A stretch of DNA of 64,000 bases. It comes from Gammaproteobacteria bacterium (lineage in GTDB: Bacteria; Pseudomonadota; Gammaproteobacteria; Pseudomonadales; Azotimanducaceae). Location: assembly GCA_027295305.1 (NCBI GenBank), contig JAPULC010000024.1:248-64247 (forward strand), in the 5' to 3' direction. The notes under the pieces were generated by a model. The model was not told the DNA's origin. It did no database searches and saw only the letters and a program-made list of their open reading frames with translations. Both the position numbers and the translations under genes were made by a program. Positions 1,171-36,929 of the stretch are shown here, in pieces (positions within the stretch are counted from its first letter, which is position 1; the number at the start of each line of letters is the position of its first letter).

Positions 1171-1636
1171 CCCCGCGAAACTGGAAGCGGCTGCGCGGGC
1201 GTGGATCGCACTGTTCGACAATGACACTTATGGGACCATGCACCTGTCCGATGTCCCGGAGGCAGTCGACCTCCGCGCCGCCCTCGAAGCCGAGCCCACA
1301 CAGGATAGCGTTCCGGGAGACTTCTGTTTTTACTGCGATGGGCCAACTGACTTTCCCACGTGCGATCAATGTGGAGGCCCTCACAACCCGCTGGTCGCCT
1401 GTATTGAGACTTTCCGCACCAAAGCCCATGCAGCCGGCCGGGCTGAGGGGCGGGACGTCGGTCACCGTGAGGCGAGAGACTGGATTCGCAAGCAGGCCGA
1501 CGAGTGGCGAGACGGCGCCAGCAGCGTCAAAGGGCACCATCTCCCGCTCAAGCATGTGTATCGGTGGCTCGACAGGTTGGCGGAGTACGACGCCAAGCTA
1601 CCGGAGGCCGACGATGCCCAGCCCTCCGGTCAATAG
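1163..1636 (+). CDS. Hypothetical Cys-containing protein, paralogue of 12516-13085
   Basis: ATG at 1163 overlaps the upstream stop. It shares LEAEPTQDSVPGD and KAHAAGR motifs with the 12516 product. Confidence 0.65.
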   Translation: MTDPAKLEAAARAWIALFDNDTYGTMHLSDVPEAVDLRAALEAEPTQDSVPGDFCFYCDGPTDFPTCDQCGGPHNPLVACIETFRTKAHAAGRAEGRDVGHREARDWIRKQADEWRDGASSVKGHHLPLKHVYRWLDRLAEYDAKLPEADDAQPSGQ

Positions 1637-1835
1637 CCTCCCCTGCCCCGGCTGCCGGGCCCTGCAGTCCGAGGTGCTCCGGGACCGCCGGGAGTTCAGG
1701 GATGAGGTGCACGAGCTGGAGGGTCGCCTACGCAGGCTGCGACGGGCGGCTGCCGAGCGCTGTGGCATCGTTCCCCTCGCCAGCATGACCGATGCCGAGC
1801 TGATCGAGCGCCTGACGGGGGAGGATGGATCCTAG
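1614..1835 (+). CDS. Hypothetical small protein
   Basis: ATG at 1614 follows GGAGG (1603-1607). The sequence is coiled-coil-like (REFRDEVHELEGRLRRLRRAAAE). It is the only coding-looking frame between 1636 and 1835. Confidence 0.45.
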   Translation: MPSPPVNSLPCPGCRALQSEVLRDRREFRDEVHELEGRLRRLRRAAAERCGIVPLASMTDAELIERLTGEDGS

Positions 1836-2163
1836 CGAGACCAACGAAGCGTTTGCCGACCGCATGCGCCACCGCCGCGACCCCAGCCTGATCCGGACAT
1901 ACCGCACGGACCCCATGCGAGTCAAACGAGGCGAGTCGTCCCGAGCGGTCACCTGGTTTCGAGCGAACTCGCTGACCTGCGCATCGGATGGGAGTTTCAT
2001 GGTGGACCCATACAGAGCCCCGGGAGCCGAGGTAGTCAGATCCGAATGGTTCGAGGCGGACGAGATAGCGCACCACCGAGAGGCTGCTCAGATCCATGTG
2101 GCCATCTATGATGAGCATGTCCCGCCCGGATGGGGCGTGATGGCAATCCCGGACCCGACATGA
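1825..2163 (+). CDS. Hypothetical protein, shared N-terminal motif family
   Basis: 112-aa ORF. Its N-terminus ETNEAFADRMRHRRDPSLIR resembles the N-termini of the 2160 and 2895 products. Confidence 0.6.
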   Translation: MDPSETNEAFADRMRHRRDPSLIRTYRTDPMRVKRGESSRAVTWFRANSLTCASDGSFMVDPYRAPGAEVVRSEWFEADEIAHHREAAQIHVAIYDEHVPPGWGVMAIPDPT

Positions 2164-2474
2164 TGACCACCCACCTATCCGATATCGAGTATGCCGCCCA
2201 CATGAGGGACAAGCGCGACGCCCGGCCGATGCTGACCTTCGTGTGGGATGACGAGTCGAGGCTCTACGCCCACGGGATAGACATGGTAGGCAATCCTACG
2301 GAAGTCCGCATGGGTAGCCCGTCGCTCACGGACATGACGCGCGCCGCCCACATGATCCCGGGCATCATCGTCCATGAGGTCAGCGGCACTCCGAACCACA
2401 ACGGCAATGCCTGGCACCTGCGGGTCGAGTACTCGGCCAAGCGACCCCGAGAGTTTGACAGGCTGGTGCTGTGA
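2160..2474 (+). CDS. Hypothetical protein, shared N-terminal motif family
   Basis: ATG at 2160 overlaps the upstream TGA as ATGA. N-terminus LSDIEYAAHMRDKRDARPML. Confidence 0.6.
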   Translation: MMTTHLSDIEYAAHMRDKRDARPMLTFVWDDESRLYAHGIDMVGNPTEVRMGSPSLTDMTRAAHMIPGIIVHEVSGTPNHNGNAWHLRVEYSAKRPREFDRLVL

Positions 2475-2487
2475 CTCAGGAGAAACG

Positions 2488-2892
2488 ATGACCGACCACG
2501 AACAAGCCAAAGCATTTCTGACCGAAGCCGGCGCCCGCTTCCCGGAACCCTGGATGGGCGAGCCCTTCATACACGTGGAAGCCGCCGAGGAAGTTGACAC
2601 CCAGGTGATCCGCTACGGACCGCCATGCCGTCCGGGCCGTGAAATCTACGAATGGGATGAGATAGCGGACACCGACGTGTATGTGCGCACCTTATCCGAT
2701 GAGGAGTTCGATGCAGAACTCGCACAGTACAATCGAGATGTGAAGCAGTGGAGTAAGGACGGAGGCCAGAAGATAGTGGTGAACGGGCCGCCCAAGCTCA
2801 CCGCCACATTCCGCACGGCCGGCGGCTCATGGTGCGAAGGCATCTGGACGAGCATCGGATGGCAGTGGACAGCATGGGAGATCAGGGGCTGA
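2488..2892 (+). CDS. Hypothetical protein
   Basis: ATG at 2488 (MTDHEQAKAF) with CAGGAG 6 nt upstream. Confidence 0.6.
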   Translation: MTDHEQAKAFLTEAGARFPEPWMGEPFIHVEAAEEVDTQVIRYGPPCRPGREIYEWDEIADTDVYVRTLSDEEFDAELAQYNRDVKQWSKDGGQKIVVNGPPKLTATFRTAGGSWCEGIWTSIGWQWTAWEIRG

Positions 2893-2894
2893 GC

Positions 2895-3227
2895 ATGACC
2901 CAGGACCTATCCAACGAGGACTTCGCCAGGCGGATGCGGGAGCAACGTGGAGAGCCGCGACTGATCCGTCTGCCGGCCGTCATGAGGCAGGGGGAACGGC
3001 TCGCCGAGTTCGCCGAGCAGTGGGAGCGCGTGATGATGAGCGCAGGGCTTTGGCGCAAACCCACTTTGGCGAGCATCGAGAAGACTGTGGAGGCCATGCC
3101 CGGGGTACTGTCCGCAGAGGCCACCGAGACGTCACCAGGAGTCGTCGAAGTCAGCGCGATGGTGCGTGGGCCCGTTATCTACTCGAAGACAATCCGCATA
3201 CCCCTATCATCGGTGCCCCTGCCATGA
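2895..3227 (+). CDS. Hypothetical protein, shared N-terminal motif family
   Basis: ATG at 2895 lies just after the upstream stop. N-terminus LSNEDFARRMREQRGEPRLIR. Its stop overlaps the next ATG as ATGA. Confidence 0.55.
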   Translation: MTQDLSNEDFARRMREQRGEPRLIRLPAVMRQGERLAEFAEQWERVMMSAGLWRKPTLASIEKTVEAMPGVLSAEATETSPGVVEVSAMVRGPVIYSKTIRIPLSSVPLP

Positions 3228-6124
3228 CCAAGAATATCCGAATATACGCGCCTGAGGGCATGGATCGCCTGGAACTCGCCCAGCATGTGATGGGGCCTTC
3301 CTTCCTCCTGAAGGCCGAGCGGCTCAAGTACAGCGAGCGGACCTTTCAGCATTACAAGGCGATGCAGCAGTCGGCGGAGCAGTTTGAGCGCGCCTACCGC
3401 AAGCAAATGGCCAGGATTCTTCAGGCGGTTCGGGCCTACGCGGAAGAAGAGATAATAGATAGCAAACTGAAGAAGGCCGAGCGTAGCCCCTACGATAGTA
3501 TCGCAAATCCCGAGCACCTGAAGGCCATCCGCGCGATCGTCACCGACTACCACCTAGCGTTCATCGCGGCCCGGGTCGGTCCCGAGTACGTGTCGGCCGA
3601 GGACATCCAGCGGATCATCGACAGCGGCATCCTGCCGGCCGACCTGCAGCACACCTACGATCCGGCCCTGGGCGGCGAGCCCGCGACCAGCGCGCAGAGC
3701 ATCGCCGACGCCTACAACTACGGCATTTCCATGGGGCGCGACCCCCGCCTGCGCGGCGTCGCCAGCGTCCTGGGCATCGACCCCTGGCGGACCAAGTACG
3801 GCGATCCGACCCTGTCCAGCCAGGAGCAGGCCGCCCGCACCTGGGCGTCCGGCAACGCGGCCAACACCATCACGGGCCTGGGCAACCGGGTGGGGGACGA
3901 CTTCAGCACCCTGGCCGTCGAGGCCGACGCCGAGCTGCGCGCCAAGTACCAGGCCGACGTCCGCCAGGAGCTGGACATGAACATCGAGCGCCAGCAGTCA
4001 TGGCGGAAGCTCGCGAGCGACCTGGGCCACAGGACCGAGGACTGGTCCCGGGACTTCAAGCGCATCGCGGCGACCGAGAAGCAGGCCGCTATGCAGCAGG
4101 GACTCACCGCGGGGCTCATCGAGCGCGAGGGCGACCCCGACGAGATCAACGTGGCAAAGCAACCGTCGCCTGGCGCCTGTCCAGATTGTGTGCGTTTACA
4201 CTACACCGCAGGTGAAGGCTCACCCCTGCGCATCTTCAAGTTATCTGAACTTCAAGCCAATGGAACGAACGTTGGGAAGAAGCAAAATGCATGGCTAGCC
4301 ACAATTGGGCCAATTCATCCGTGGTGTCACCGGCCGGATGCGGTGGTGGAGACTAGGGAGGGTCCGCGCCCGCTAGCCCTCATCCGGCCGGGTGACCGCG
4401 TGCTCACCCACAAGGGGCGATTCCGACCCGTACAGCGCGTCGCGAAGCGCGCCCACCGGGGCGAGCTTGTGGAACTCCTCAGCGGCGACGAGATCTTCGT
4501 AGCGACGCCAGAGCACCCGTACCTCACTCAGCGCGGATGGGTGGCGGCTTCGGATTTGCAACCGGGCGATCATCTCATGCGCGTTTTGCAACGACCCCTT
4601 GAGGATGTAGGCGCGAATGACAATCCAGCCGAGCGCTTCGAGGTAGGCCGACTTCTGGAGATCCTGGGCGATTTTGCGTTCGGACGAGTGCCACGTTGGG
4701 TCCACCTCTACGGCCGCGAAAATCCCCGGCAGCGCGAGGTCGATGTTGTATGGGCCTACCGCCAGCTGAGGCGTCGGATCAAATCCGTGGCGGCGCAAGG
4801 TGCCGAGCACCTGCTGTTCATACTCCGTCAGGTCGCCGGTTTTCTGTCGCGTCTGAGCCGAGCGGATCTTCTGCACGGCTGGGCGCGGCTTGCCACGGAC
4901 TGCGGCATGAGCGTTGTGTACCATCGCCCGGCGGCCCTCAGCATCCAGTTGATCCCAGAGCAAGCGAGTAGCTTCAGCAGGAGTTCGGATAGTGACGCCA
5001 TTCGCCCGCAACTTGGCGTTGATCGTTTGGGCACAAACCCCATATCTATTTCCGAGTTCGGAAGTCGGAGCGCCAGCAATATAGGCAGCGCACATATCTT
5101 CAATCGGGATGGAAGCAGCCCCGCCTTGGCTGATTTTGATGCCCGCGGCGGCGCTGCGTCGACGGACGGTATTCCCGCTGACCCCAAGCCGGGAAGCGAG
5201 TGCGGACACAGTGATTTCTCCGCGCTCCAAGGGGTCGCGGAATTCCTCAATATCGATGGAGTAGACCATGGCGACACGCTATACCATGGTGTTGAAATTA
5301 ATGAAATCCGTTCACATGAACATGATGGGGAGGTGTATTCGCTGAGCGTTGCCGAGGACGAGTCATATATCGTGGATGGCGTCGTGGTGCACAACTGCGC
5401 TTGTGAACTTATCCATGTGCCCAACGGCTGGGGCTTCAACGAAGACGGCGACCTCATGCCGGAAAGCCTGCTGCGCGCCGAGCTGCTCCCGGGCGACCTG
5501 CGCAAAGCCCACCTGACCTGGGGCAGCGTCGTGCCCGAGCGCGGCGTGGCTGTGCGCCTGGGCGACCCGCAGAAGGTGGCCGTGGCTGACGAGGTCATCG
5601 CGCGCACCCCCCCGGAGATTTTCGACAGGCGCGTGGGCATCACCCTGATCTGCGAAGACGAGCCGCGGGTCGAGAATGCGATGAGCGACCACGACCTCGC
5701 CTACTGGACCGGCAACGAAATCCGCGTGTCGGGCAAGGTCACCGCCGAGATGCTCCGGCACGTGCTCGAACATGAGATAGGCCACTCCCTGAACGTGTGG
5801 CTGATGTACTGCTGGGGCGGCGAGCCGAAGGTCATCGCGTGGCATGCGAAGCTATATCAGGTAAGTGAGGGCGAAGGGTTCGTGAGCGCCTACGCGCAGA
5901 CCGCGCCCATCGAGAATGCGGCCGAGCTGACTCGGCTCTATCTGTACGACCGCAAGCTCATCATGATGCAGTTCCCGCGGGCCTTCGCGATGCTGCACAA
6001 AGCCTACAAAGGGATATGGCGAAAGGGACGCAATGACCGACCACTCGAAGAACGACCCGGCGAGCAAGCCAAGCAACGACAAGACGCCATCGACGAGCGC
6101 AAGCGCGGAGGCGCCCGACTTTGA
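3224..6124 (+). CDS. MuF (SPP1 gp7)-like domain protein with C-terminal HExxH metallopeptidase-like module, interrupted by an intein
   Basis: ATG at 3224 in an ATGA overlap (the track start 3020 is rejected). It has a CPDC...HPW|intein|CACEL MuF signature and HEIGH at 5771-5785. The last ~90 nt overlap the better-coding 6033 frame. Confidence 0.8.
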   Translation: MTKNIRIYAPEGMDRLELAQHVMGPSFLLKAERLKYSERTFQHYKAMQQSAEQFERAYRKQMARILQAVRAYAEEEIIDSKLKKAERSPYDSIANPEHLKAIRAIVTDYHLAFIAARVGPEYVSAEDIQRIIDSGILPADLQHTYDPALGGEPATSAQSIADAYNYGISMGRDPRLRGVASVLGIDPWRTKYGDPTLSSQEQAARTWASGNAANTITGLGNRVGDDFSTLAVEADAELRAKYQADVRQELDMNIERQQSWRKLASDLGHRTEDWSRDFKRIAATEKQAAMQQGLTAGLIEREGDPDEINVAKQPSPGACPDCVRLHYTAGEGSPLRIFKLSELQANGTNVGKKQNAWLATIGPIHPWCHRPDAVVETREGPRPLALIRPGDRVLTHKGRFRPVQRVAKRAHRGELVELLSGDEIFVATPEHPYLTQRGWVAASDLQPGDHLMRVLQRPLEDVGANDNPAERFEVGRLLEILGDFAFGRVPRWVHLYGRENPRQREVDVVWAYRQLRRRIKSVAAQGAEHLLFILRQVAGFLSRLSRADLLHGWARLATDCGMSVVYHRPAALSIQLIPEQASSFSRSSDSDAIRPQLGVDRLGTNPISISEFGSRSASNIGSAHIFNRDGSSPALADFDARGGAASTDGIPADPKPGSECGHSDFSALQGVAEFLNIDGVDHGDTLYHGVEINEIRSHEHDGEVYSLSVAEDESYIVDGVVVHNCACELIHVPNGWGFNEDGDLMPESLLRAELLPGDLRKAHLTWGSVVPERGVAVRLGDPQKVAVADEVIARTPPEIFDRRVGITLICEDEPRVENAMSDHDLAYWTGNEIRVSGKVTAEMLRHVLEHEIGHSLNVWLMYCWGGEPKVIAWHAKLYQVSEGEGFVSAYAQTAPIENAAELTRLYLYDRKLIMMQFPRAFAMLHKAYKGIWRKGRNDRPLEERPGEQAKQRQDAIDERKRGGARL
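4325..5395 (+). mobile_element. Class-1 intein (357 codons) inserted in the MuF HPxCxC motif
   Basis: Starts with Cys (CHRPDAVVET), has a TPEH block-B-like motif, and ends VVVHN followed by Cys+1. Removing it restores HPWCAC. Confidence 0.75.
4373..5269 (-). CDS. Homing-endonuclease-like protein (two HTH units plus Vsr/DUF559-like nuclease core) encoded antisense inside the intein
   Basis: 298-aa ORF with ITVSALASRLGVSGNTVRR, TSELGNRYGVCAQTINAKL and VGPYNIDLALPGIFAAVEVDPTWH. It reads as a real protein, whereas the + frame of the same DNA does not. Confidence 0.65.
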   Translation of the reverse strand: MVYSIDIEEFRDPLERGEITVSALASRLGVSGNTVRRRSAAAGIKISQGGAASIPIEDMCAAYIAGAPTSELGNRYGVCAQTINAKLRANGVTIRTPAEATRLLWDQLDAEGRRAMVHNAHAAVRGKPRPAVQKIRSAQTRQKTGDLTEYEQQVLGTLRRHGFDPTPQLAVGPYNIDLALPGIFAAVEVDPTWHSSERKIAQDLQKSAYLEALGWIVIRAYILKGSLQNAHEMIARLQIRSRHPSALSEVRVLWRRYEDLVAAEEFHKLAPVGALRDALYGSESPLVGEHAVTRPDEG

Positions 6125-11456: not shown

Positions 11457-12299
11457 ATGACCATTCAATACCTTGATCTACTCGCGGACATCCTGGACAA
11501 CGGCACGCCGCGCGGCGACCGCACGGGCACCGGGACAACGGCTCTATTCGGCCGCTCGATGCGCTTCGACCTGTCTGAAGGCTTCCCGTTGCTCACCACG
11601 AAGAAGCTCCCGCTGCGCTGGATCGCGGAAGAGCTGCTGTGGATGCTGTCGGGTTCGACCGACGAGCATGTGCTACGCGACAAGAAGGTGCACATTTGGA
11701 GTGAGTGGGCTACCGAGGAGCAGTGCGCGAAGTTTGGTCGCGAGCCTGGCGACCTGGGACCAGCATATGGCCACCTCTGGCGAAACTTCGGCGCGTCGGG
11801 CGCCAACATCGGATACTATCCGAACGGCATCGACCAGATTGCGGAAGTCGTGCGGCAGCTCAGGGAGAGCCCGAATAGCCGGCGCATTATCATCACGGGC
11901 TGGGACCCTCGGGAAGCCACACAAGTCGCACTCCCCCCATGCCACACGCTAGTTCAGTTCGACGTGGACGCGGGCAAGCTGTCCTGCCAGCTCTACATGC
12001 GGTCGGCCGATGTGTTCCTGGGCGTGCCGTTCAACACGGCGAGCTACGCGCTGCTGACCCACATGTTCGCGCAGGTCACGGGCCTCGAAGTGGGCGACCT
12101 GATCATGTCGTTCGGCAACGTCCACATCTACAACAACCATCGCGAGCAGGTACGGATGCAAATCGAGCGCGACCCGCGGCCATTGCCCGAGCTGCTCCTG
12201 GACCCGACCGTCAAGTCGATCGATGACTTCGAGTGGAGGCACATCGAGATGCGGGGGTACGACCCGTGCCCGACGATCAAGGCCGAGGTGTCGGTGTGA
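11457..12299 (+). CDS. thyA: Thymidylate synthase (ThyA type)
   Basis: 280 aa with the canonical ThyA blocks: DRTGTGT, FPLLTTKK, DLGPAYGHLWR, SRRIIITGWDP, LPPCHTLVQF, YMRSADVFLGVPFNTASYALL. Confidence 0.95.
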   Translation: MTIQYLDLLADILDNGTPRGDRTGTGTTALFGRSMRFDLSEGFPLLTTKKLPLRWIAEELLWMLSGSTDEHVLRDKKVHIWSEWATEEQCAKFGREPGDLGPAYGHLWRNFGASGANIGYYPNGIDQIAEVVRQLRESPNSRRIIITGWDPREATQVALPPCHTLVQFDVDAGKLSCQLYMRSADVFLGVPFNTASYALLTHMFAQVTGLEVGDLIMSFGNVHIYNNHREQVRMQIERDPRPLPELLLDPTVKSIDDFEWRHIEMRGYDPCPTIKAEVSV

Positions 12300-33248: not shown

Positions 33249-33285
33249 CGCAGCAGATTACCCGATTTTGGGGTACCGTCTAGCG

Positions 33286-33525
33286 ATGCCCCCCAGTACC
33301 GGCAACGCCTGCCCCCATTGCCAGCAGATGCTGTTCCGCAAGAGTGAGGCGGGCGACAGAATGAAGCTCGGCAGGACGATGGTCGTGCTCCACAAGTCTG
33401 GTGATATCGAGGTGAACTGCGTTCGTTGTAAGCGCGCGGTTATCATCGGCAAGCTCGAAGCCGGGGCGCAACTCCGCAAGGCCGGCCCGCGTCTGCATAT
33501 CCGCGTCCGAGCAGATCAGGCTTGA
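33286..33525 (+). CDS. Mu Com-like zinc-finger protein
   Basis: CPHCQQMLFRK...IEVNCVRCKRAVIIG parallels Mu Com CKNCNKLLFKA...IEIRCPRCKRHIIM. Confidence 0.55.
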   Translation: MPPSTGNACPHCQQMLFRKSEAGDRMKLGRTMVVLHKSGDIEVNCVRCKRAVIIGKLEAGAQLRKAGPRLHIRVRADQA

Positions 33526-33589
33526 CATCGGCGGCACCCGCCGCCCAGTATCTGTCACGTAGGCCCGTCTCTCGTTGGTTCGAGGATCA

Positions 33590-33630
33590 GGGGCGCCCCC
33601 GCAGAAGATGCGGTCGGGCAACGCCCCTTT
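33590..33630 (+). terminator. Possible terminator-like nested hairpin
   Basis: GGGGCG...CGCCCC encloses CCGCA-gaaga-TGCGG. Only TTT follows. Confidence 0.3.
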
Positions 33631-33645
33631 CGATCCCGACCAACC

Positions 33646-34395
33646 ATGTTGCAACACGCACCTACCGCCCGTCCGACCGACCCCTCGGCCATTTTCCAGT
33701 TTGATATGGAGATGGAGTCGATGGAGAAGTCCCGGGTCGACGGGCGCGATGGTCGGTTCATCGGCGGATACATCTCCACCGACCACATGGACCGTGCGGG
33801 CGAGACGCTGATCCAAGATGGGCTGGATTTCGAGCCCTTCCTGAAGAAAGGGTGGTTCAACGATAACCATGACGGCGCGGGCGATTCGCTCGTGGGCTAT
33901 CCGACCATGGTCCGCTTGGACAACCTCGCGAAGGGTCATAAAGGATGGTACGTCGAGGGCGAACTGCTCCCCGACGGCGCCAACCCGCGGGCCGATTCGC
34001 TCTGGAAGATCGCGCAGGGCCTGCACAAGGGCGCCAGCGGCCGCAAGCTCGGGTTCTCCGTTGAGGGCAGCATCCTCAAGCGCGACGCGAAGGATTCCAA
34101 GATCGTGCGTAAGGCGGAGGTCCGCGAGGTCGCCATAACTAGGTGTCCTGTGAACACGCAGACGAGCCTGGATGTCCTCGCGAAGTCGCTGGCCGTGGGC
34201 ATCCCCGCGGGCGAGCCCGGGAGCGCGGAGCCTCTGCAGACCGAAGCGCTCGAAGGCGTCGGCACCAAAAAGAAGAAGAAAAAGAAGCTCACCAAGGGGG
34301 CGGCTGTCGAGCTGATCCTCGCGATTCGACCTGGATTCAGCCGCGCACTCGCGGCGCAGATTGTGGACTACACGGCGCGGCATCACGCCGCTTAG
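33646..34395 (+). CDS. Prohead serine protease (HK97 gp4/S78-like)
   Basis: It has FIGGYISTDHMDRAGETL...NDNHD...VGYP...GWYVEGEL...GFSVEGS and a Lys-rich C-terminus. The start is 33646 or ATG 33706. Confidence 0.72.
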   Translation: MLQHAPTARPTDPSAIFQFDMEMESMEKSRVDGRDGRFIGGYISTDHMDRAGETLIQDGLDFEPFLKKGWFNDNHDGAGDSLVGYPTMVRLDNLAKGHKGWYVEGELLPDGANPRADSLWKIAQGLHKGASGRKLGFSVEGSILKRDAKDSKIVRKAEVREVAITRCPVNTQTSLDVLAKSLAVGIPAGEPGSAEPLQTEALEGVGTKKKKKKKLTKGAAVELILAIRPGFSRALAAQIVDYTARHHAA

Positions 34396-34413
34396 CCCCG
34401 AGAGGAAGAGATC

Positions 34414-35448
34414 ATGCCCGGAACACAAACTCCCGAAGATGGCGTCACGCCCGAAAGCCTCGGCGCTTCGCTCGATGAACTCGTCAAGGCGGCCGCGGCC
34501 ACCGATCTCCTGAAGGGTGGCGCCACCGTGGATGCCAACCGCGTCGAGTCTTCGGGCCGTGTCGAAGGCGAGGACGCCAAGACCGCGACGGTCACGGGCG
34601 GCGGCCGCGCGCCGGTGCCCAAGGCCATGGACAGCATGATGATCGGCAAGCTCGCCGACCTCGGATTCGACGCCGGTGACATCGCCGCCATGGCAGGTGC
34701 CCTCACAGGCAAGGCGAAGGATGACGAGGAAGAGGAAGACGACAGCATGGAGGGTTACGTCGGCAAGATGACCGCACATGCCAAGGGCTACGCTGACAAG
34801 AACGGTGGCTCGATGAAGGGCTACATGGGCTACCCCGGTGCCCATGACGTCACCCCGAAGATGGACAAGGCGGGCACGGTCGGCGGCGAGCCGCTGGCGA
34901 AGGCAATGGATGCTTACAACGCCGATCCAGACATGGGACCGCTGCTCGATGGCACGGATTTCTTTGCGGGCTTCGTGAAGACGACCGCCGATCAGCTGGA
35001 CGGCGTCAATGCCACCCTGAAGAAGGGTTTCGGCAATCAGGAGCATGTCAACGCCGCGATGGCCGGAGCCATCCACCAGACGGGCACGCTCATCAAGAGC
35101 CAGTCGGGCATCATCGAAGCCCTGGGCGAGCGCCTGGGCCTAGTCGAGCGGCAGCCGCAACAGCCTCGCGGCGCGACCTCCGCAAGCGCGGCGGCCACGC
35201 TGGCGAAGTCCATGCCAGGCGAAGCGGGCGCGGGCGGCGGCGAGCCGCTGAAGAAGCACGAAATCCTTTCGACCCTTTCCTACATGAACCTGGAGAAGGG
35301 CATGCGCGAGATCGGCGGGGAGCGAACCGCGCAGATCATCGGGTTGCTCGAAGGTGGCAACCAGTGCTCAGAGCAGGCCCTGGCGGCCGTCAACGACTTC
35401 CTCATGGCCAACCCCACCGAGGTCCAGGCCGCTCGGACCTACCAGTAG
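34414..35448 (+). CDS. Scaffolding protein (putative)
   Basis: It lies between the protease and capsid genes, is acidic with low complexity, and has GAGAGGAAGAG upstream. Confidence 0.55.
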   Translation: MPGTQTPEDGVTPESLGASLDELVKAAAATDLLKGGATVDANRVESSGRVEGEDAKTATVTGGGRAPVPKAMDSMMIGKLADLGFDAGDIAAMAGALTGKAKDDEEEEDDSMEGYVGKMTAHAKGYADKNGGSMKGYMGYPGAHDVTPKMDKAGTVGGEPLAKAMDAYNADPDMGPLLDGTDFFAGFVKTTADQLDGVNATLKKGFGNQEHVNAAMAGAIHQTGTLIKSQSGIIEALGERLGLVERQPQQPRGATSASAAATLAKSMPGEAGAGGGEPLKKHEILSTLSYMNLEKGMREIGGERTAQIIGLLEGGNQCSEQALAAVNDFLMANPTEVQAARTYQ

Positions 35449-35516: not shown

Positions 35517-36929
35517 ATGACTGTCGGAGCATTCATTTCGGCGCAGGACTACCGCGATTACAGTGGCTATGGCTCGTCCAGCACCAACGAAATCGCGGAG
35601 CTACGCAAGGCCCTCGTCGCAGGGAACGACGTCAACGATCCGGGTGTAGCGCCTGGCGTTGGCTTCCCGCTGCGCGTGGAGTCGCTCGAAGCGACGATGA
35701 AGAACCTCACCTACGAGATGGATGAGATCAAGCTCTTCAAGACCATCCCGAAGATACCCGCGACCAACACGGTCGAGGAGTTCAACCGGTTGCTGGCTTA
35801 CGGCCAGGGCGGTTCGACCCGGTTCAACCTGGGCTTCATGGGAGAAGGTGACCTGCCCGAGGAAGAGGACAGCACCTACGAGCGCGTCACGATGCTGATC
35901 AAGTATCTGGGCGTGACCGGTCGCGTGACTCACGTCGCGAACACCATCCGGGCAGCGACCGGCAACGTGATCGCGCTGGAGACCATGAACAAGACCATGG
36001 ACCTCCTGAAGAACAACGAAAACGCCTTGTTCTTCGGCGACTCCACGCTCATCCCCGAGCAGTTCGACGGGCTCCAGAAGCTCATCACGGACGGTGCGCC
36101 CGACAACGTCATCGACCTGCGCGGCGCGCCGCTCAGCGAGAACGCGCTCAACGACATGTTGCTGCGCATCCGCCAGAACTTCGGCACCGCGACGGATGCC
36201 TACTTCGCGACCGGCGCCTTCGCCGACCTCGCAAAGCAGGTCTACGACCGGCAGCGGTTCGCCTACTCGCCGGCCCCCGGCGTGCTCGGAGCGACCGTCA
36301 CAGCCTTCCAAGGCCAGCACGGCCGCATCAACCTGCATGACCACGTGTTCATCCAGGAGGGCCCCGCGTCTCCCGCCACCGGACTGGGCAAGACCGACAA
36401 GCGCCCGAACGTTCCGAGCATCACCGTGGCGCCAGCAGCGGCCGCCAATGCGGCTTCGCAGTTCATCGCGGCCGACGACGGGACCTACATCTACCAGGTG
36501 GTTGCAGGCAACCGCTTCGGTCTGTCCGCCCCCGTGGACAGTGCTGGTGTGGCCGTGGTCGCAGGCGAGCAGGTGACGTTCACCATCCAGGACAACGGGC
36601 AGAGCCCGACGTACTACGAGATCTACCGCTCGACGATCGGCGGCGCCGCCAGCACCGCGCGGCTCATGGTCCGGGTTGCCCGCACGGGTGCGACCCAGGT
36701 GATCACCGACAACAACGACGACATCCCAGGGACCAGCATTGGCTTCGTGCTCATGCAGAACCAGCGTTCGTTCAGCTGGGCGCAGCTTCTGCCGATGACG
36801 CGCATACCCCTCGCGGCCATCGACACCAGCATCCGATGGGCGCAGGTGCTCTACGGTGGCGTCAAGATGTACACGCCCGCCAAGAACATCGTGGTCAAGA
36901 ACGTCGGACGCGCGGCCGGCTCGCTGTAG
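35517..36929 (+). CDS. Major capsid protein (putative)
   Basis: 470 aa, positioned after the protease and scaffold genes. It has a strong AAGGAG RBS and is followed by a hairpin terminator. Confidence 0.62.
   Translation: MTVGAFISAQDYRDYSGYGSSSTNEIAELRKALVAGNDVNDPGVAPGVGFPLRVESLEATMKNLTYEMDEIKLFKTIPKIPATNTVEEFNRLLAYGQGGSTRFNLGFMGEGDLPEEEDSTYERVTMLIKYLGVTGRVTHVANTIRAATGNVIALETMNKTMDLLKNNENALFFGDSTLIPEQFDGLQKLITDGAPDNVIDLRGAPLSENALNDMLLRIRQNFGTATDAYFATGAFADLAKQVYDRQRFAYSPAPGVLGATVTAFQGQHGRINLHDHVFIQEGPASPATGLGKTDKRPNVPSITVAPAAAANAASQFIAADDGTYIYQVVAGNRFGLSAPVDSAGVAVVAGEQVTFTIQDNGQSPTYYEIYRSTIGGAASTARLMVRVARTGATQVITDNNDDIPGTSIGFVLMQNQRSFSWAQLLPMTRIPLAAIDTSIRWAQVLYGGVKMYTPAKNIVVKNVGRAAGSL

Follow-up and report, generated by a model that had tools for sequence, protein, structure and literature searches.

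The window, by which we mean the whole 64,000-nucleotide stretch of DNA that was analysed, lies on a contig of an NCBI MAG labelled Gammaproteobacteria and carries SPO1/SP-10-like myovirus genes. Within it, a continuous open reading frame on the + strand encodes a MuF-like head-morphogenesis protein that is interrupted in frame by a class-1 intein, and the middle of this intein is overlapped on the - strand by a predicted homing-endonuclease gene. The features of the locus, with the basis of each assignment in brackets, are:

3020-6124, + strand: open reading frame (ORF) as listed (ORF listing)
3224-6124, + strand: NCBI protein P0153, 966 aa, starting at 3224 (annotation)
3224-4324, + strand: N-extein, MuF-like head-morphogenesis protein, ending ...ATIGPIHPW (P0153 start; alignment with intein-less alleles to W367; custom HMM)
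4325-5395, + strand: class-1 intein of 357 codons with Cys1, T61-P-E-H64 (block B), and ...VVVHN357, followed by Cys+1 (Pfam; gap in intein-less alleles)
4325-4591, + strand: Hint N-lobe, intein residues 1-89, blocks A and B (pLDDT 86-93; Hint_2 match to residues 1-44)
4592-5278, + strand: predicted linker of 229 aa in the sense frame, intein residues 90-318, a mirror translation of the nuclease gene (no family, low pLDDT, substitution pattern)
5279-5395, + strand: Hint C-lobe, blocks F and G, ...EVYSLSVAEDESYIVDGVVVHN (pLDDT 81-92; Intein_splicing alignment)
5396-6124, + strand: C-extein, starting CACELIHVPNGW, with a conserved HExxH motif (alignment with intein-less alleles)
4373-5269, - strand: predicted gene for a homing endonuclease of 298 aa, its codons in exact antiparallel register with those of the intein frame (ORF listing, register, PF18741 and DUF559, relatives, AlphaFold)
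5003-5251, - strand: two predicted helix-turn-helix (HTH) units, nuclease residues ~7-41 and 56-89 (model helices; weak Pfam HTH matches)
4547-4774, - strand: predicted Vsr-like/EDxHD nuclease core, residues ~166-241, with D177, E188, and W193-H194 (PDB fold matches, conservation)
4373-4546, - strand: low-confidence C-terminal tail, residues 242-298 and the stop codon, on the strand opposite Hint blocks A and B (pLDDT 43-62; codon mapping)
4550-4591, both strands: ~14 codons in which both proteins are confidently modelled, the last helix of the nuclease against the last strand of the Hint N-lobe (two AlphaFold models compared)
5270-5287, - strand: nuclease gene leader, with ATG-GTA-TAG at 5279-5287 and TAGCGT 6 nt upstream of the ATG at 5269 (sequence reading)

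A class-1 intein in a MuF-like gene

Two Pfam profiles matched the insert at 4325-5395 above their cut-offs, namely Intein_splicing (PF14890; 43.5 bits, cut-off 35.8), with an alignment extending to profile position 155 of 155, and Hint_2 (PF13403; 32.3 bits, cut-off 28.4). C1, T61/H64, H356-N357, and C+1 were invariant in an 11-row alignment of the window and 10 intein-containing homologues. When the host protein was aligned with intein-less MuF homologues, a check named in the preliminary description of this DNA, the gap in five intein-less alleles (P0155, P0157, P0158, P0159, and P0163) corresponded exactly to residues 368-724. The insertion flanks HPW|C.CEL (the bar marks the insertion point) are invariant in these five alleles, and H365, P366, W367, C725, C727, and E728 are invariant in the alignment with them; the closest extein is that of P0155, with 82% identity to the window exteins. 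The Pfam matches and the exact gap bear out the preliminary description, in which a class-1 intein at HPW|CAC with Cys1, a TPEH block B, and HN|C had been proposed. The spliced junction peptide is predicted to be ...GPIHPWCACELIHVPNGW. Empty-site DNA was also read at two loci, L092 and L093, which are candidate substrates of the nuclease; the L092 site, an intein-less allele, reads ...ATCCACCCTTGG|TGTTCTTGCGAACTT....

The host protein had earlier been assigned to the MuF/SPP1-gp7 family. Motifs that speak for this assignment (RIAATE, CxxC, and HPWCxC) are present, together with a weak match (22 bits, E 1e-8) to a custom HMM built from the N-exteins of 54 relatives, in which RIAATE aligned to IARTE. 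A curated match is absent: neither Phage_Mu_F (PF04233) nor PHROG matched the host protein, even when it was spliced in silico to the 609-aa extein. Among the spliced cores of relatives, PF04233 matched four of the seven tested (Vivi2, Aaphi23, Snoke, and L018). On its motifs and the custom-profile match, we describe the host protein as MuF-like, not as a confirmed member of the family.

An AlphaFold model of the + strand intein, for which the input alignment was shallow (11 rows), gave pLDDT values of 81-93 for the Hint lobes and 25-45 for the middle, and the + translation of 4592-5290 matched no Pfam or PHROG family, in agreement with the earlier reading of this segment as lacking a recognisable domain. 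The linker, put at ~240 aa in that reading, comprises 229 aa (intein residues 90-318) here. By sequence and model, it is predicted to be a non-domain segment that is kept only stop-free.

The antisense ORF encodes a predicted Vsr-like nuclease

The product of the - strand ORF matched REase_MTES_1575 (PF18741; 44.0 bits, cut-off 38.2) and, marginally, DUF559 (PF04480; 20.7 bits, cut-off 20.6), and several HTH families gave weak Pfam matches at residues 15-40 of its N-terminus. Its AlphaFold model has a pLDDT of 85.8, is confident over residues 1-240, has 213 residues at 90 or above, and places the helices of the HTH units at 7-15, 21-28, and 32-41 and at 56-64, 69-76, and 80-89. In a Foldseek search with this model, the top PDB match was the homing endonuclease I-Bth0305I (3R3P; probability 1.0, TM 0.64 on target), and Vsr (1CW0) matched with probability 0.99; the E-values for these two structures are weak (0.015-0.3), though their ranking is consistent. 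The window nuclease had no match when its sequence was searched directly against the PDB. Relatives of the nuclease numbered 2,005 in the representative library, 677 of them at E<=1e-10, and across 72 homologues D177 is invariant while E151 and E188 are at least 90% conserved. The Trp-His pair (W193-H194) is conserved as well, the window motif reading ...NIDLA...AAVEVDPTWH..., and when its motifs are compared with those in Dassa et al. 2009 (PMC2677866), the nuclease has residues that appear equivalent to Vsr D51 and H69. In the C-terminal tail, 'RVLW' mirrors the intein's 'PEHP', and the conservation of 'RVLW' is thus due to the intein. With both Pfam families above cut-off and a pLDDT of ~86, the earlier proposal of a real - strand protein with two HTH units and a Vsr/DUF559-type core is confirmed at the level of prediction, and we regard the ORF at 4373-5269 as encoding a predicted two-HTH nuclease of the Vsr-like/EDxHD kind.

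Codon register and stop-codon avoidance are conserved among related loci

Every + codon starts at a position congruent to 2 mod 3, with - codons filling identical triplets (e.g. 5267-5269), so that the triplets of both strands coincide throughout. Among its 27 Leu and 18 Ser codons, the - ORF has 0 TTA, 0 CTA, and 0 TCA codons, and because these are missing the + frame stays open across the nuclease gene. Both points had been made in the preliminary description and both hold. In the genes of the window (7,509 codons), TTA, CTA, and TCA together have a frequency of 0.0092 per codon, which gives a probability of 0.064 for an open + frame over 298 codons, or of 0.03-0.05 given the Leu and Ser content. 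At 63% GC, the open frame in the window alone is therefore not remarkable (P about 0.03-0.06). Long shadow ORFs are common in the window. It is homology, together with the pattern across the family and the structure models, that makes the open frame more than chance.

The nuclease gene lies antisense, in register, and inside an open head-protein ORF of 314-1,265 aa in 82 of 84 related loci, a set that was gathered by nuclease search and cannot show how often such inteins lose the nuclease; 65 of the 82 loci are unique, and their GC content ranges from 0.38 to 0.69. At the related loci, the two remaining antisense frames contain 3-35 stops. Against ~227 stop-generating codons expected in 46 unique genes, 0 were observed, and for loci of 38-45% GC the chance probability is 1e-5 to 1e-14 per locus. 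The insertion point, H-x-x|C-x-C of MuF-type proteins, is common to at least 65 diverged loci. In all six GenBank phages inspected (Vivi2, Aaphi23, Snoke, Pseudomonas CF74b, Mycobacterium Sejanus, and Jerseyvirus jersey), the nuclease match is antisense to a spanning CDS.

In nine close pairs, mismatches fell at sense position 3 in the exteins and Hint lobes and at sense position 1 in the nuclease region (e.g. 20:5:5 and 24:1:6), and this switch argues for selection on the - frame in the nuclease region. In the intein middle of the window lineage, antisense and sense amino acid identities were 37 vs 27%, 72 vs 59%, and 47 vs 27%. The family evidence is decisive in indicating that the arrangement is selected rather than a product of chance.

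Expression signals of the nuclease gene

The closest relatives (L086-L088) start the nuclease gene at the counterpart of the ATG in ATG-GTA-TAG (5279-5287), and in the window copy this start is closed by a stop after two codons; therefore, the window nuclease could be weakly expressed or recently inactivated. No convincing Shine-Dalgarno sequence was found upstream of the nuclease start in the window or in L086-L088, a promoter scan of 4100-5700 found nothing, and L086-L088 have no convincing promoter upstream of the nuclease start. In the main clade of relatives, the block-F His codon is CAT, antisense ATG, in 44 of 50 loci, and the Leu codon of 'DLQ' is CTC, antisense GGAG, in 31 of 40 (background 26%). 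A sigma-70-like promoter with 10 or more of 12 matches is present in 14 of 50 main-clade loci but in 0 of 336 control windows, and three of these promoters are perfect (TTGACA-17-TATAAT). From the end of the -10 element to the antisense ATG, the distance is 26 nt. In the main clade only, a candidate promoter, a candidate ribosome-binding site, and an ATG thus appear to be written antisense into the splicing motifs.

Mobility and origin

Between L086 and L087, the inteins are 77-86% identical and the exteins 65-74%, while between the window and L086 the extein is 74% identical and the intein only ~45%. These values hint that intein and extein phylogenies disagree in the manner that homing predicts, and such a conflict is also described for some clusters (bioRxiv 10.1101/2025.01.02.630785). 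Free-standing relatives of the nuclease also occur: at L015 the gene converges on the 3' end of a MuF gene that lacks an intein and ends ...HPNCRC, and at L052 on the 3' end of a portal-MuF gene. We suggest that a free-standing nuclease gene, convergent at the 3' side of MuF, may have invaded the loop of a mini-intein, where the in-register antisense frame would naturally carry the fewest stops.

Discussion

We propose that the locus is very probably a composite selfish element in a MuF-like gene, consisting of a class-1 intein and an in-register antisense homing-endonuclease gene. As the sequence indicates, the + strand would be translated straight through the mirrored nuclease gene. The Hint lobes (intein residues 1-89 and 319-357) would then dock and excise 357 residues, including the 229-residue linker, and splicing would rejoin ...HPW to CAC..., completing the four-cysteine CxxC...CxC motif. 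The nuclease would be expressed from a separate antisense transcript, uncoupled from the late structural gene, and during co-infection would cut intein-less alleles near the HPW|C.C codons, repair copying the element in (homing). Relatives show that the middle of the intein is under selection in its - frame and the Hint lobes in their + frame, the mid-intein + frame being constrained only by the absence of stops.

The locus might instead be a decaying relic: splicing of the intein would persist, but the antisense nuclease gene would have lost its expression or activity and would simply not have acquired a stop so far. We consider this unlikely. The ATG at 5269 is preceded by neither a promoter-like site nor a Shine-Dalgarno sequence, the start homologous to that of L086-L088 meets its stop after two codons, and at 63% GC a frame that is open in register costs little (P about 0.05), all as a relic would have it; however, the family-conserved residues are all present (including E151, D177, E188, and W193-H194), the model is confident over 240 residues, and within the lineage conservation is higher in the nuclease frame than in the sense frame. 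Moreover, stops in the - frame would accumulate fast without selection, the + middle being unconstrained, and a leaderless transcript would be compatible with the TAGCGT that lies 6 nt ahead of the ATG.

It is improbable, in our view, that the nuclease is an independent selfish gene nested in the intein that has another target or a general anti-competitor role and provides no homing drive. The free-standing relatives L015 and L052 show that the nuclease can occur alone, and the Gordonia phage Barsten, with the same Hint subtype, carries an antisense LAGLIDADG gene, suggesting that nuclease and Hint modules are exchangeable. Yet at least 65 diverged loci keep the nuclease with inteins at the one site, H-x-x|C-x-C, the free-standing relatives adjoin that same MuF site, and the conflict between intein and extein phylogenies takes the form predicted by homing.

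We give little credence to an insert that does not splice and is tolerated in frame, leaving a functional protein of 966 aa, a reading put forward for the ShiLan/HNH element. Nuclease inserts that lie out of frame and lack splicing domains provide a precedent (PMC11855218), but in the window and its homologues the Hint lobes are complete with all catalytic residues conserved, the insert splits the invariant HPW|C.C motif, partner of the invariant CxxC, and relatives spliced in silico regain a full-length Phage_Mu_F match (to profile positions 110-112 of 112). Finally, that the - ORF is a high-GC shadow ORF and the + middle a novel in-frame intein domain (a real nuclease or other) is refuted, even though such ORFs are common in the window and conservation in one frame automatically gives some in the mirrored frame, because the - product matches curated nuclease families and the + segment none, pLDDT is at least 90 for 213 - residues vs below 50 across the + middle, substitutions in the - frame gather at its third codon positions, loci of 38-45% GC have the arrangement as well (P 1e-5 to 1e-14 per locus), and free-standing homologues of the - protein exist.

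Relation to known systems

Having named no known intein with an antisense nuclease gene, the preliminary description has to be corrected on this point. Antisense LAGLIDADG genes in inteins go back to Gorbalenya 1998 and Gogarten 2002, with Synechocystis DnaX and a Chloroflexus SpoVR-like protein as examples (all as cited in bioRxiv 10.1101/2025.01.02.630785), and the citing preprint itself, by Gosselin, Arsenault & Gogarten 2025, describes inteins with an antisense VSR-like homing endonuclease in minor capsid proteins of actinobacteriophages. Their nuclease model matches Vsr (1CW0) and, by HHpred, I-Bth0305I (3R3P). The window shares with these inteins an unsplit MuF intein, an antisense Vsr-like ORF between the splicing blocks, and a structureless in-frame middle (bioRxiv 10.1101/2025.01.02.630785), and its insertion point is that of the actinophage members, H-x-x|C-x-C. 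The window nuclease and those of Gordonia phage Vivi2-type loci are direct homologues (30% identity), and by tblastn it matches Vivi2, Fosterous, Affeca, and Angelicage, antisense within their MuF genes. The window differs in that it is not from an actinophage but carries SPO1/SP-10-like myovirus genes, in its Hint subtype, which is related to that of Barsten rather than that of Vivi2, and in the two HTH units of its nuclease. The MuF intein of Barsten has its antisense LAGLIDADG nuclease gene in exact codon register; its Hint lobes are 49% identical to those of the window over window residues 371-453, and both inteins end ...DEDESYI..G..VHN|C. Antisense-LAGLIDADG inteins and the window thus both have an opposite-strand nuclease gene in an intact intein, whereas the fold in the window is Vsr-like/EDxHD.

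In fractured genes, a free-standing Vsr-like endonuclease gene lies between the halves of a split intein (Dassa et al. 2009, PMC2677866). The window resembles them in the Vsr-like superfamily with an extra conserved Glu, in the phage setting, and in a free-standing nuclease invading an intein. However, the host gene of a fractured gene consists of two ORFs with a trans-splicing split intein and pieces in parental orientation (PMC2677866), whereas the window has the continuous ORF 3224-6124, a contiguous intein, and an inverted, fully overlapping nuclease gene; the single ORF without a stop in the intein excludes a fractured gene or split intein here. I-Bth0305I, the EDxHD homing endonuclease of a group I intron in recA of Bacillus phage 0305phi8-36 (Taylor et al. 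2011, PMC3239194; PDB 3R3P), is likewise phage-borne and combines an N-terminal DNA-binding region with a C-terminal Vsr-like catalytic domain, but it is intron-encoded on the sense strand and only 18-19% identical to the window nuclease over ~95 residues. The ShiLan/HNH element described in 2025 (PMC11855218) similarly has an alternative-frame nuclease within an insertion that is open in the host frame, its nuclease gene lying in a shifted frame of the same strand with no detectable splicing domain.

The antisense-nuclease intein is therefore an already known design, and the window is a further case of a rare kind. In the main text of the actinophage preprint, 'promoter' and 'ribosome binding' are absent, and its passages with 'codon' or 'transcri' contain nothing on codon register, stop-codon avoidance, or expression signals (bioRxiv 10.1101/2025.01.02.630785). 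What is new here is the spread of this design beyond actinophages, the conserved register, and the avoidance of stop codons, together with, in the main clade, a candidate promoter, ribosome-binding site, and ATG that appear to lie antisense within the splicing motifs.

A class-1 intein with a domain-less middle

The insert at 4325-5395 matches the Pfam profiles Intein_splicing (43.5 bits; cut-off 35.8) and Hint_2 (32.3 bits; cut-off 28.4). Besides the window's own protein, a protein search yielded several homologues with the intein (889-977 aa) and many that lack it (560-615 aa). Alignment with intein-less homologues, a check proposed in the preliminary description, showed that five intein-less alleles lack exactly 357 residues in a single clean gap, flanked by HPW and C-x-C-E, both invariant (HPW|C-x-C-E); the closest intein-less allele, database protein P0155, is 82% identical to the window exteins, i.e. 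the parts of the host protein that flank the intein. The DNA of the intein-less site has the form ...CAY CCN TGG | TGY NNN TGC GAR... and reads CAAGCGACGATAGGCCCTATCCACCCTTGG|TGTTCTTGCGAACTTATCCATGTACCGAAC in the related locus L092; splicing at HPW|C is predicted to give the junction peptide GPIHPWCACELIHVPNGW. Residues C1, T61/H64 (in TPEH), H356-N357 and C+1 are invariant among 11 intein-containing sequences. The Pfam matches, the catalytic residues and the exact gap in five alleles thus bear out the earlier assignment, and by all features visible in the sequence the insert is a class-1 intein.

We note that extein position +2 is Ala (C-A-C) in four of four intein-containing alleles (window 5396-5401; loci L086-L088) and Ser or Gly in four of five intein-less alleles in a comparison that includes L092, L093, P0158, P0159 and P0163. 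This Ala may reflect a co-conversion tract or a requirement for splicing.

The + translation of 4592-5290 had no match in Pfam or PHROG. In an AlphaFold model of the + intein built from 11 sequences, the two Hint lobes were predicted confidently (pLDDT 86-93 for residues 1-89 and 81-92 for residues 319-357), and all of residues 90-318 scored 25-45, in agreement with the initial reading of the middle segment as lacking a recognisable domain.

A Vsr-like nuclease gene in exact register on the opposite strand

Both reading frames described initially are present. The + ORF 3020..6124 of the ORF listing corresponds to the NCBI-annotated 966-aa protein P0153, which starts at 3224, and 4373..5269 (-) is a 298-aa ORF. 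Each + codon begins at a position that leaves remainder 2 on division by 3, and the antisense codons are the identical triplets, each the reverse complement of a + codon, confirming the exact antiparallel register. As claimed for the open + frame, the antisense ORF, with its 27 Leu and 18 Ser codons, contains no TTA, CTA or TCA, the triplets whose reverse complements are stops. About 14 codons (4550-4591) code for confidently modelled parts of both proteins. The tail of the antisense ORF (residues 242-298) mirrors Hint blocks A and B, with 'RVLW' mirroring 'PEHP', and is probably mere read-through.

The antisense product matches the Pfam family REase_MTES_1575 (44.0 bits; cut-off 38.2), reaches DUF559 at the cut-off and has weak N-terminal helix-turn-helix (HTH) matches. 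An AlphaFold2 model (mean pLDDT 85.8; residues 1-240 confident, 241-298 poor) shows two HTH units of three helices each, with a helical linker and a nuclease core of the alpha/beta type. Because a PDB sequence search with the product found nothing meaningful, we turned to a fold search, in which the best Foldseek matches, with weak E-values, were the I-Bth0305I catalytic domain (3R3P; probability 1.0, TM 0.64 on target) and E. coli Vsr (1CW0). A word-indexed protein search gave two matches only, compared with 2,005 relatives (677 with E<=1e-10) in an exhaustive HMMER search; therefore, the low count reflects sensitivity, not rarity. In an alignment of 72 homologues, D177 never varies, E151, E188, Y174, N175, G214 and W215 are each at least 90% conserved, and the nuclease motif ...YNxDxA...VAVE.xGGxWH... 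is of the Vsr type. Profile, model and fold matches thereby uphold the earlier view of a real protein with HTH units and a Vsr/DUF559-like core. The window nuclease has an extra N-terminal HTH unit of ~45 residues (5117-5269, -) that L086-L088 do not have.

From the contrast in pLDDT between the Hint lobes, the sense middle and the antisense product, we conclude that a folded nuclease is encoded on the antisense strand and, on the sense strand, two Hint lobes with a linker of 229 residues between them that forms no domain. Because the protein collection includes the window's + ORF and is missing the antisense ORF, this case shows that gene callers and intein surveys overlook the nuclease.

The sense frame is kept open across a family of phage loci

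Considered alone, the open mirrored frame of the window is hardly beyond chance: with 0.0092 stop-generating codons per codon in the window genes, the probability that a mirrored frame stays open over 298 codons is 0.064, or 0.03-0.05 given the Leu and Ser content, and it is weak evidence by itself because long opposite-strand ORFs are usual at 63% GC. Numerous long ORFs lie opposite likely genes in the window (e.g. 33280-35076, -). The in-register antisense frame has the fewest stops to begin with. The idea that it is the sole frame that can be opened synonymously was rejected on genetic-code reasoning, as synonymous changes can keep any of the three antisense registers free of stops.

Megablast of the gene against GenBank phages gave no match; tblastn with the antisense product matched 102 GenBank phage records (62 Salmonella, 15 Pseudomonas, 8 Gordonia, 6 Escherichia, and Haemophilus, Aggregatibacter and others). 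The matches sit under genes annotated as 'head morphogenesis', 'MuF-like minor capsid' or 'intein-containing capsid morphogenesis'; in each of the six GenBank records opened, the match is antisense to the long CDS spanning it. An IMG/VR scan found 137 relatives, and we fetched 80 of these loci; in total we analysed 84 loci (65 unique), a set found via the nuclease, from which loss rates are not estimable. Locus GC ranges from 0.38 to 0.69. In nearly all host ORFs the N-junction is ...HPN|C(L/F)xxG(T/D)... and the C-junction ...GHVY(D/N)LQT...S(S/H)N|CRC.... The in-register antisense frame is stop-free across the nuclease match in 82/84 loci, with ORFs of 314-1,265 aa, and the other two antisense frames contain 3-35 stops. 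From the extein codon usage of each locus, ~227 TTA, CTA or TCA codons are expected in 46 unique nuclease genes and none is observed, the per-locus probability of their absence reaching 1e-5 to 1e-14 in AT-rich phages. Because of this deficit, we conclude that the sense frame is actively kept open across the family; the family evidence settles that the pattern is more than chance.

Among nine close pairs, mismatches in exteins and Hint lobes concentrate at sense codon position 3, and mismatches in the nuclease region at sense position 1 (position 3 of the antisense frame), with position 2, common to both frames, hit least often (counts at sense positions 1:2:3 of, for example, 20:5:5, 24:1:6 and 58:13:45). 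L086, L087, L088 and the closest nuclease relative, L084, which together with the window form the window lineage, have the in-register antisense nuclease ORF in the same intein and the same host protein. Within this lineage, antisense versus sense amino-acid identity is 37 versus 27%, 72 versus 59% and 47 versus 27% in the middle region; in exteins and Hint lobes sense identity is above antisense identity. As judged from these substitution patterns, the comparisons show purifying selection on the antisense frame in the middle and on the sense frame elsewhere; sense stops are selected against.

Expression signals of the nuclease gene

We analysed expression signals in the 50 unique loci with the block-F motif GHVY(D/N)LQ (the main clade). 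In these loci the nuclease gene starts on the antisense of the block-F His codon, which is CAT in 44/50 and CAC in 6/50 and reads ATG and GTG in antisense. The Leu codon of 'DLQ' is CTC in 31/40 cases compared with 26% of Leu codons elsewhere; therefore, the antisense of this region reads as a Shine-Dalgarno sequence, ..TGGAG(G/A)T..(N7)..ATG. Farther upstream, the S-L-Y and L-S-S-N codons read backwards are TATAAT and TTGACA, and the -10 box has a fixed position, ending 26 nt ahead of the ATG. Sigma-70-like promoters scoring 10 or more out of 12 matches occur in 14/50 loci and in 0/336 control windows taken from the antisense strand of N-exteins, and three main-clade loci have a perfect TTGACA-17-TATAAT. 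Backward-read signals lie within the antisense of the C-terminal 90 nt of the intein in L005, L016, L017, L018, L025, L031, L072 and others.

These backward promoter, GGAG and ATG signals are absent from the window lineage. Within 4100-5700 of the window, a sigma-70 scan found no promoter-like site and a terminator scan found one terminator-like hairpin (+ strand, 5116-5132), which is within chance; upstream of the ATG at 5269 a relaxed search gave TANNNT matches only and no Shine-Dalgarno sequence. The start codon of L086-L088 (MVRNVM...) is present in the window and closed after two codons (ATG GTA TAG, 5279-5287, -), the window nuclease starting at the next ATG. A TAGCGT hexamer lies 6 nt before this ATG and, speculatively, would suit a leaderless transcript. 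With the earlier start closed in this way, the window copy may be a recently silenced nuclease, a reading that we regard as unlikely. The + ORF is contiguous through the mirrored gene, the Hint lobes and catalytic residues are intact, and the nuclease is intact and conserved.

Possible mobility and exchange of modules

Our working model is that of a mobile intein: the precursor would be translated through the linker and then spliced, the nuclease would be made from an antisense transcript and cut intein-less alleles near HPW|C.C, and repair would copy the element into the cut allele. The inteins of L086 and L087 are 77-86% identical and their exteins 65-74%, the window and L086 are 74% identical in the extein and ~45% in the intein, and P0155, with the closest extein of all, is without intein. 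Together, these identity contrasts and the intein-less allele are consistent with mobility.

Only two of the 84 loci, L015 and L052, depart from the in-register arrangement. Both have a free-standing nuclease gene. In L015 it is convergent with, and overlaps the 3' end of, a MuF gene that has no intein and ends ...HPNCRCCLTFKVD; in L052 it faces the 3' end of a portal-MuF fusion gene, again in convergent orientation. It is plausible that this convergent state is ancestral to the antisense arrangement. Gordonia phage Barsten (L085) has a MuF extein nearly the same as that of Gordonia phage Vivi2 and, at the same site, a window-like Hint domain with an antisense LAGLIDADG ORF in exact register; Vivi2 has a different Hint subtype and a Vsr-like nuclease at this site.

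Nuclease gene arrangements in L015, L052 and L085
L015, 2689-3675 (+) with 3662-4168 (-), nuclease/MuF gene pair
L052, 2959-3612 (+) with 3593-6046 (-), nuclease/portal-MuF fusion gene pair
L085, 2600-3220 (-), antisense LAGLIDADG ORF (..AAFIDGEGT..) inside CDS 1619-4726 (+)

Hint and nuclease modules appear exchangeable, and the LAGLIDADG ORF of Barsten set against the Vsr-like nuclease of Vivi2 shows that they were combined more than once, antisense and in register each time. Proteins P0228, P0229 (654 aa) and P0231 (1,101 aa, a portal-MuF fusion) have an in-frame DUF559/MTES_1575 domain inside the intein, between its Hint lobes; in P0229 the nuclease occupies residues 476-544 within the Intein_splicing envelope 337-608 (DUF559 27.3 bits, above cut-off). 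In-frame Vsr-like nucleases are absent from the homing-endonuclease arrangements reported in the text available to us of a 2025 preprint (bioRxiv 10.1101/2025.01.02.630785).

Host protein and source contig

The preliminary assignment of the host to the MuF/SPP1-gp7 family holds in part: motifs and a custom profile (22 bits) point to a MuF-like protein, and Pfam and PHROGs searches of the spliced extein gave no MuF match. We therefore describe the host as MuF-like; it fails the curated tests. Of seven relatives whose spliced cores were tested, four have Pfam Phage_Mu_F matches that reach the last positions of the profile, and one more, L043, matches Phage_min_cap2 (PF06152). The C-extein has an HExxH motif (VLEHEIGHSLN; 5771-5785, +) that is invariant in 10/10 aligned homologues, and the host protein may join a C-terminal domain of metallopeptidase type to an N-terminal part that is MuF-like. 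An invariant CxxC (C319, C322; 4178-4189, +) and CxC (C725, C727; 5396-5404, +) suggest a putative four-Cys metal site that would be split by the intein and completed by splicing. Hosts unlike standard MuF also carry the same antisense-nuclease intein (L064/L065, L027, L069/L071/L082, L070 and L043), those other than L043 with junctions such as CDLC|VVPG..HN|CRPW and KYGCC|LVEG..HN|CVWA; these may be extein switches.

The source is a 65.9-kb NCBI MAG contig labelled 'Gammaproteobacteria bacterium', and the contigs of relatives are 114-117 kb. The window encodes large-myovirus genes:

Phage genes in the window
35517-36929, major head protein, 35% identical to that of Bacillus phage SP-10
49902-52160, tail sheath
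11457-12299, thymidylate synthase

The source is probably a phage contig binned into a MAG.

Relation to described inteins and significance

The arrangement, for which the initial reading knew of no precedent in inteins, is not new. In the text available to us, Gosselin, Arsenault and Gogarten surveyed actinobacteriophage inteins and reported an in-frame middle without recognisable structure, an antisense product matching Vsr (1CW0) and I-Bth0305I (3R3P), and phylogenetic signs of ongoing transfer, and credited antisense LAGLIDADG inteins to Gorbalenya 1998 and Gogarten 2002 (bioRxiv 10.1101/2025.01.02.630785). Dassa et al. 2009 described Vsr-like nucleases as free-standing genes between split-intein halves (PMC2677866). 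Given these reports, the window is a further case of a known, rare architecture in a different, non-actinophage lineage; the structural interpretation is supported and the novelty claim is not. The words 'promoter' and 'ribosome binding' do not occur in the main text of the Gosselin et al. preprint, and its passages with 'codon' or 'transcri' contain nothing on register, stop avoidance or expression signals. Because that main text is silent on them, the invariant codon register, the quantified stop-codon avoidance and the antisense promoter, ribosome-binding site (RBS) and ATG within blocks F and G appear to be additions, as do the spread to Proteobacteria phages, the codon-position substitution flip, and the free-standing convergent and in-frame relatives.

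The window alone is of modest value, extending a recently described architecture to a non-actinophage lineage. The architecture is striking and recently published; the family-level regularities are new and testable, and the register, the 0 versus ~227 stop-generating codons and the embedded promoter/RBS/ATG make predictions for cultivable Salmonella, E. coli, Gordonia and Aggregatibacter phages. The data also suggest that Hint domains tolerate ~230-residue linkers of arbitrary sequence, which would be useful for intein engineering. In a wider reading, which we put forward tentatively and hold at somewhat less than an even chance, these inteins would be mobile units with obligate dual coding, one strand carrying the splicing domain and the other the nuclease together with its whole expression cassette; they would offer a reusable 'antisense slot', always in the same codon register, to unrelated nuclease families (Vsr-like, LAGLIDADG) and uncouple nuclease expression (early, low and driven by its own promoter) from the highly expressed late structural gene; the window would be a second lineage with other signals, possibly a leaderless transcript. 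The antisense nuclease gene over the intein is a clear natural example of long antisense dual coding with selection on both strands, and the arrangement supports the 'splicing first, nuclease invades later' model of intein evolution.
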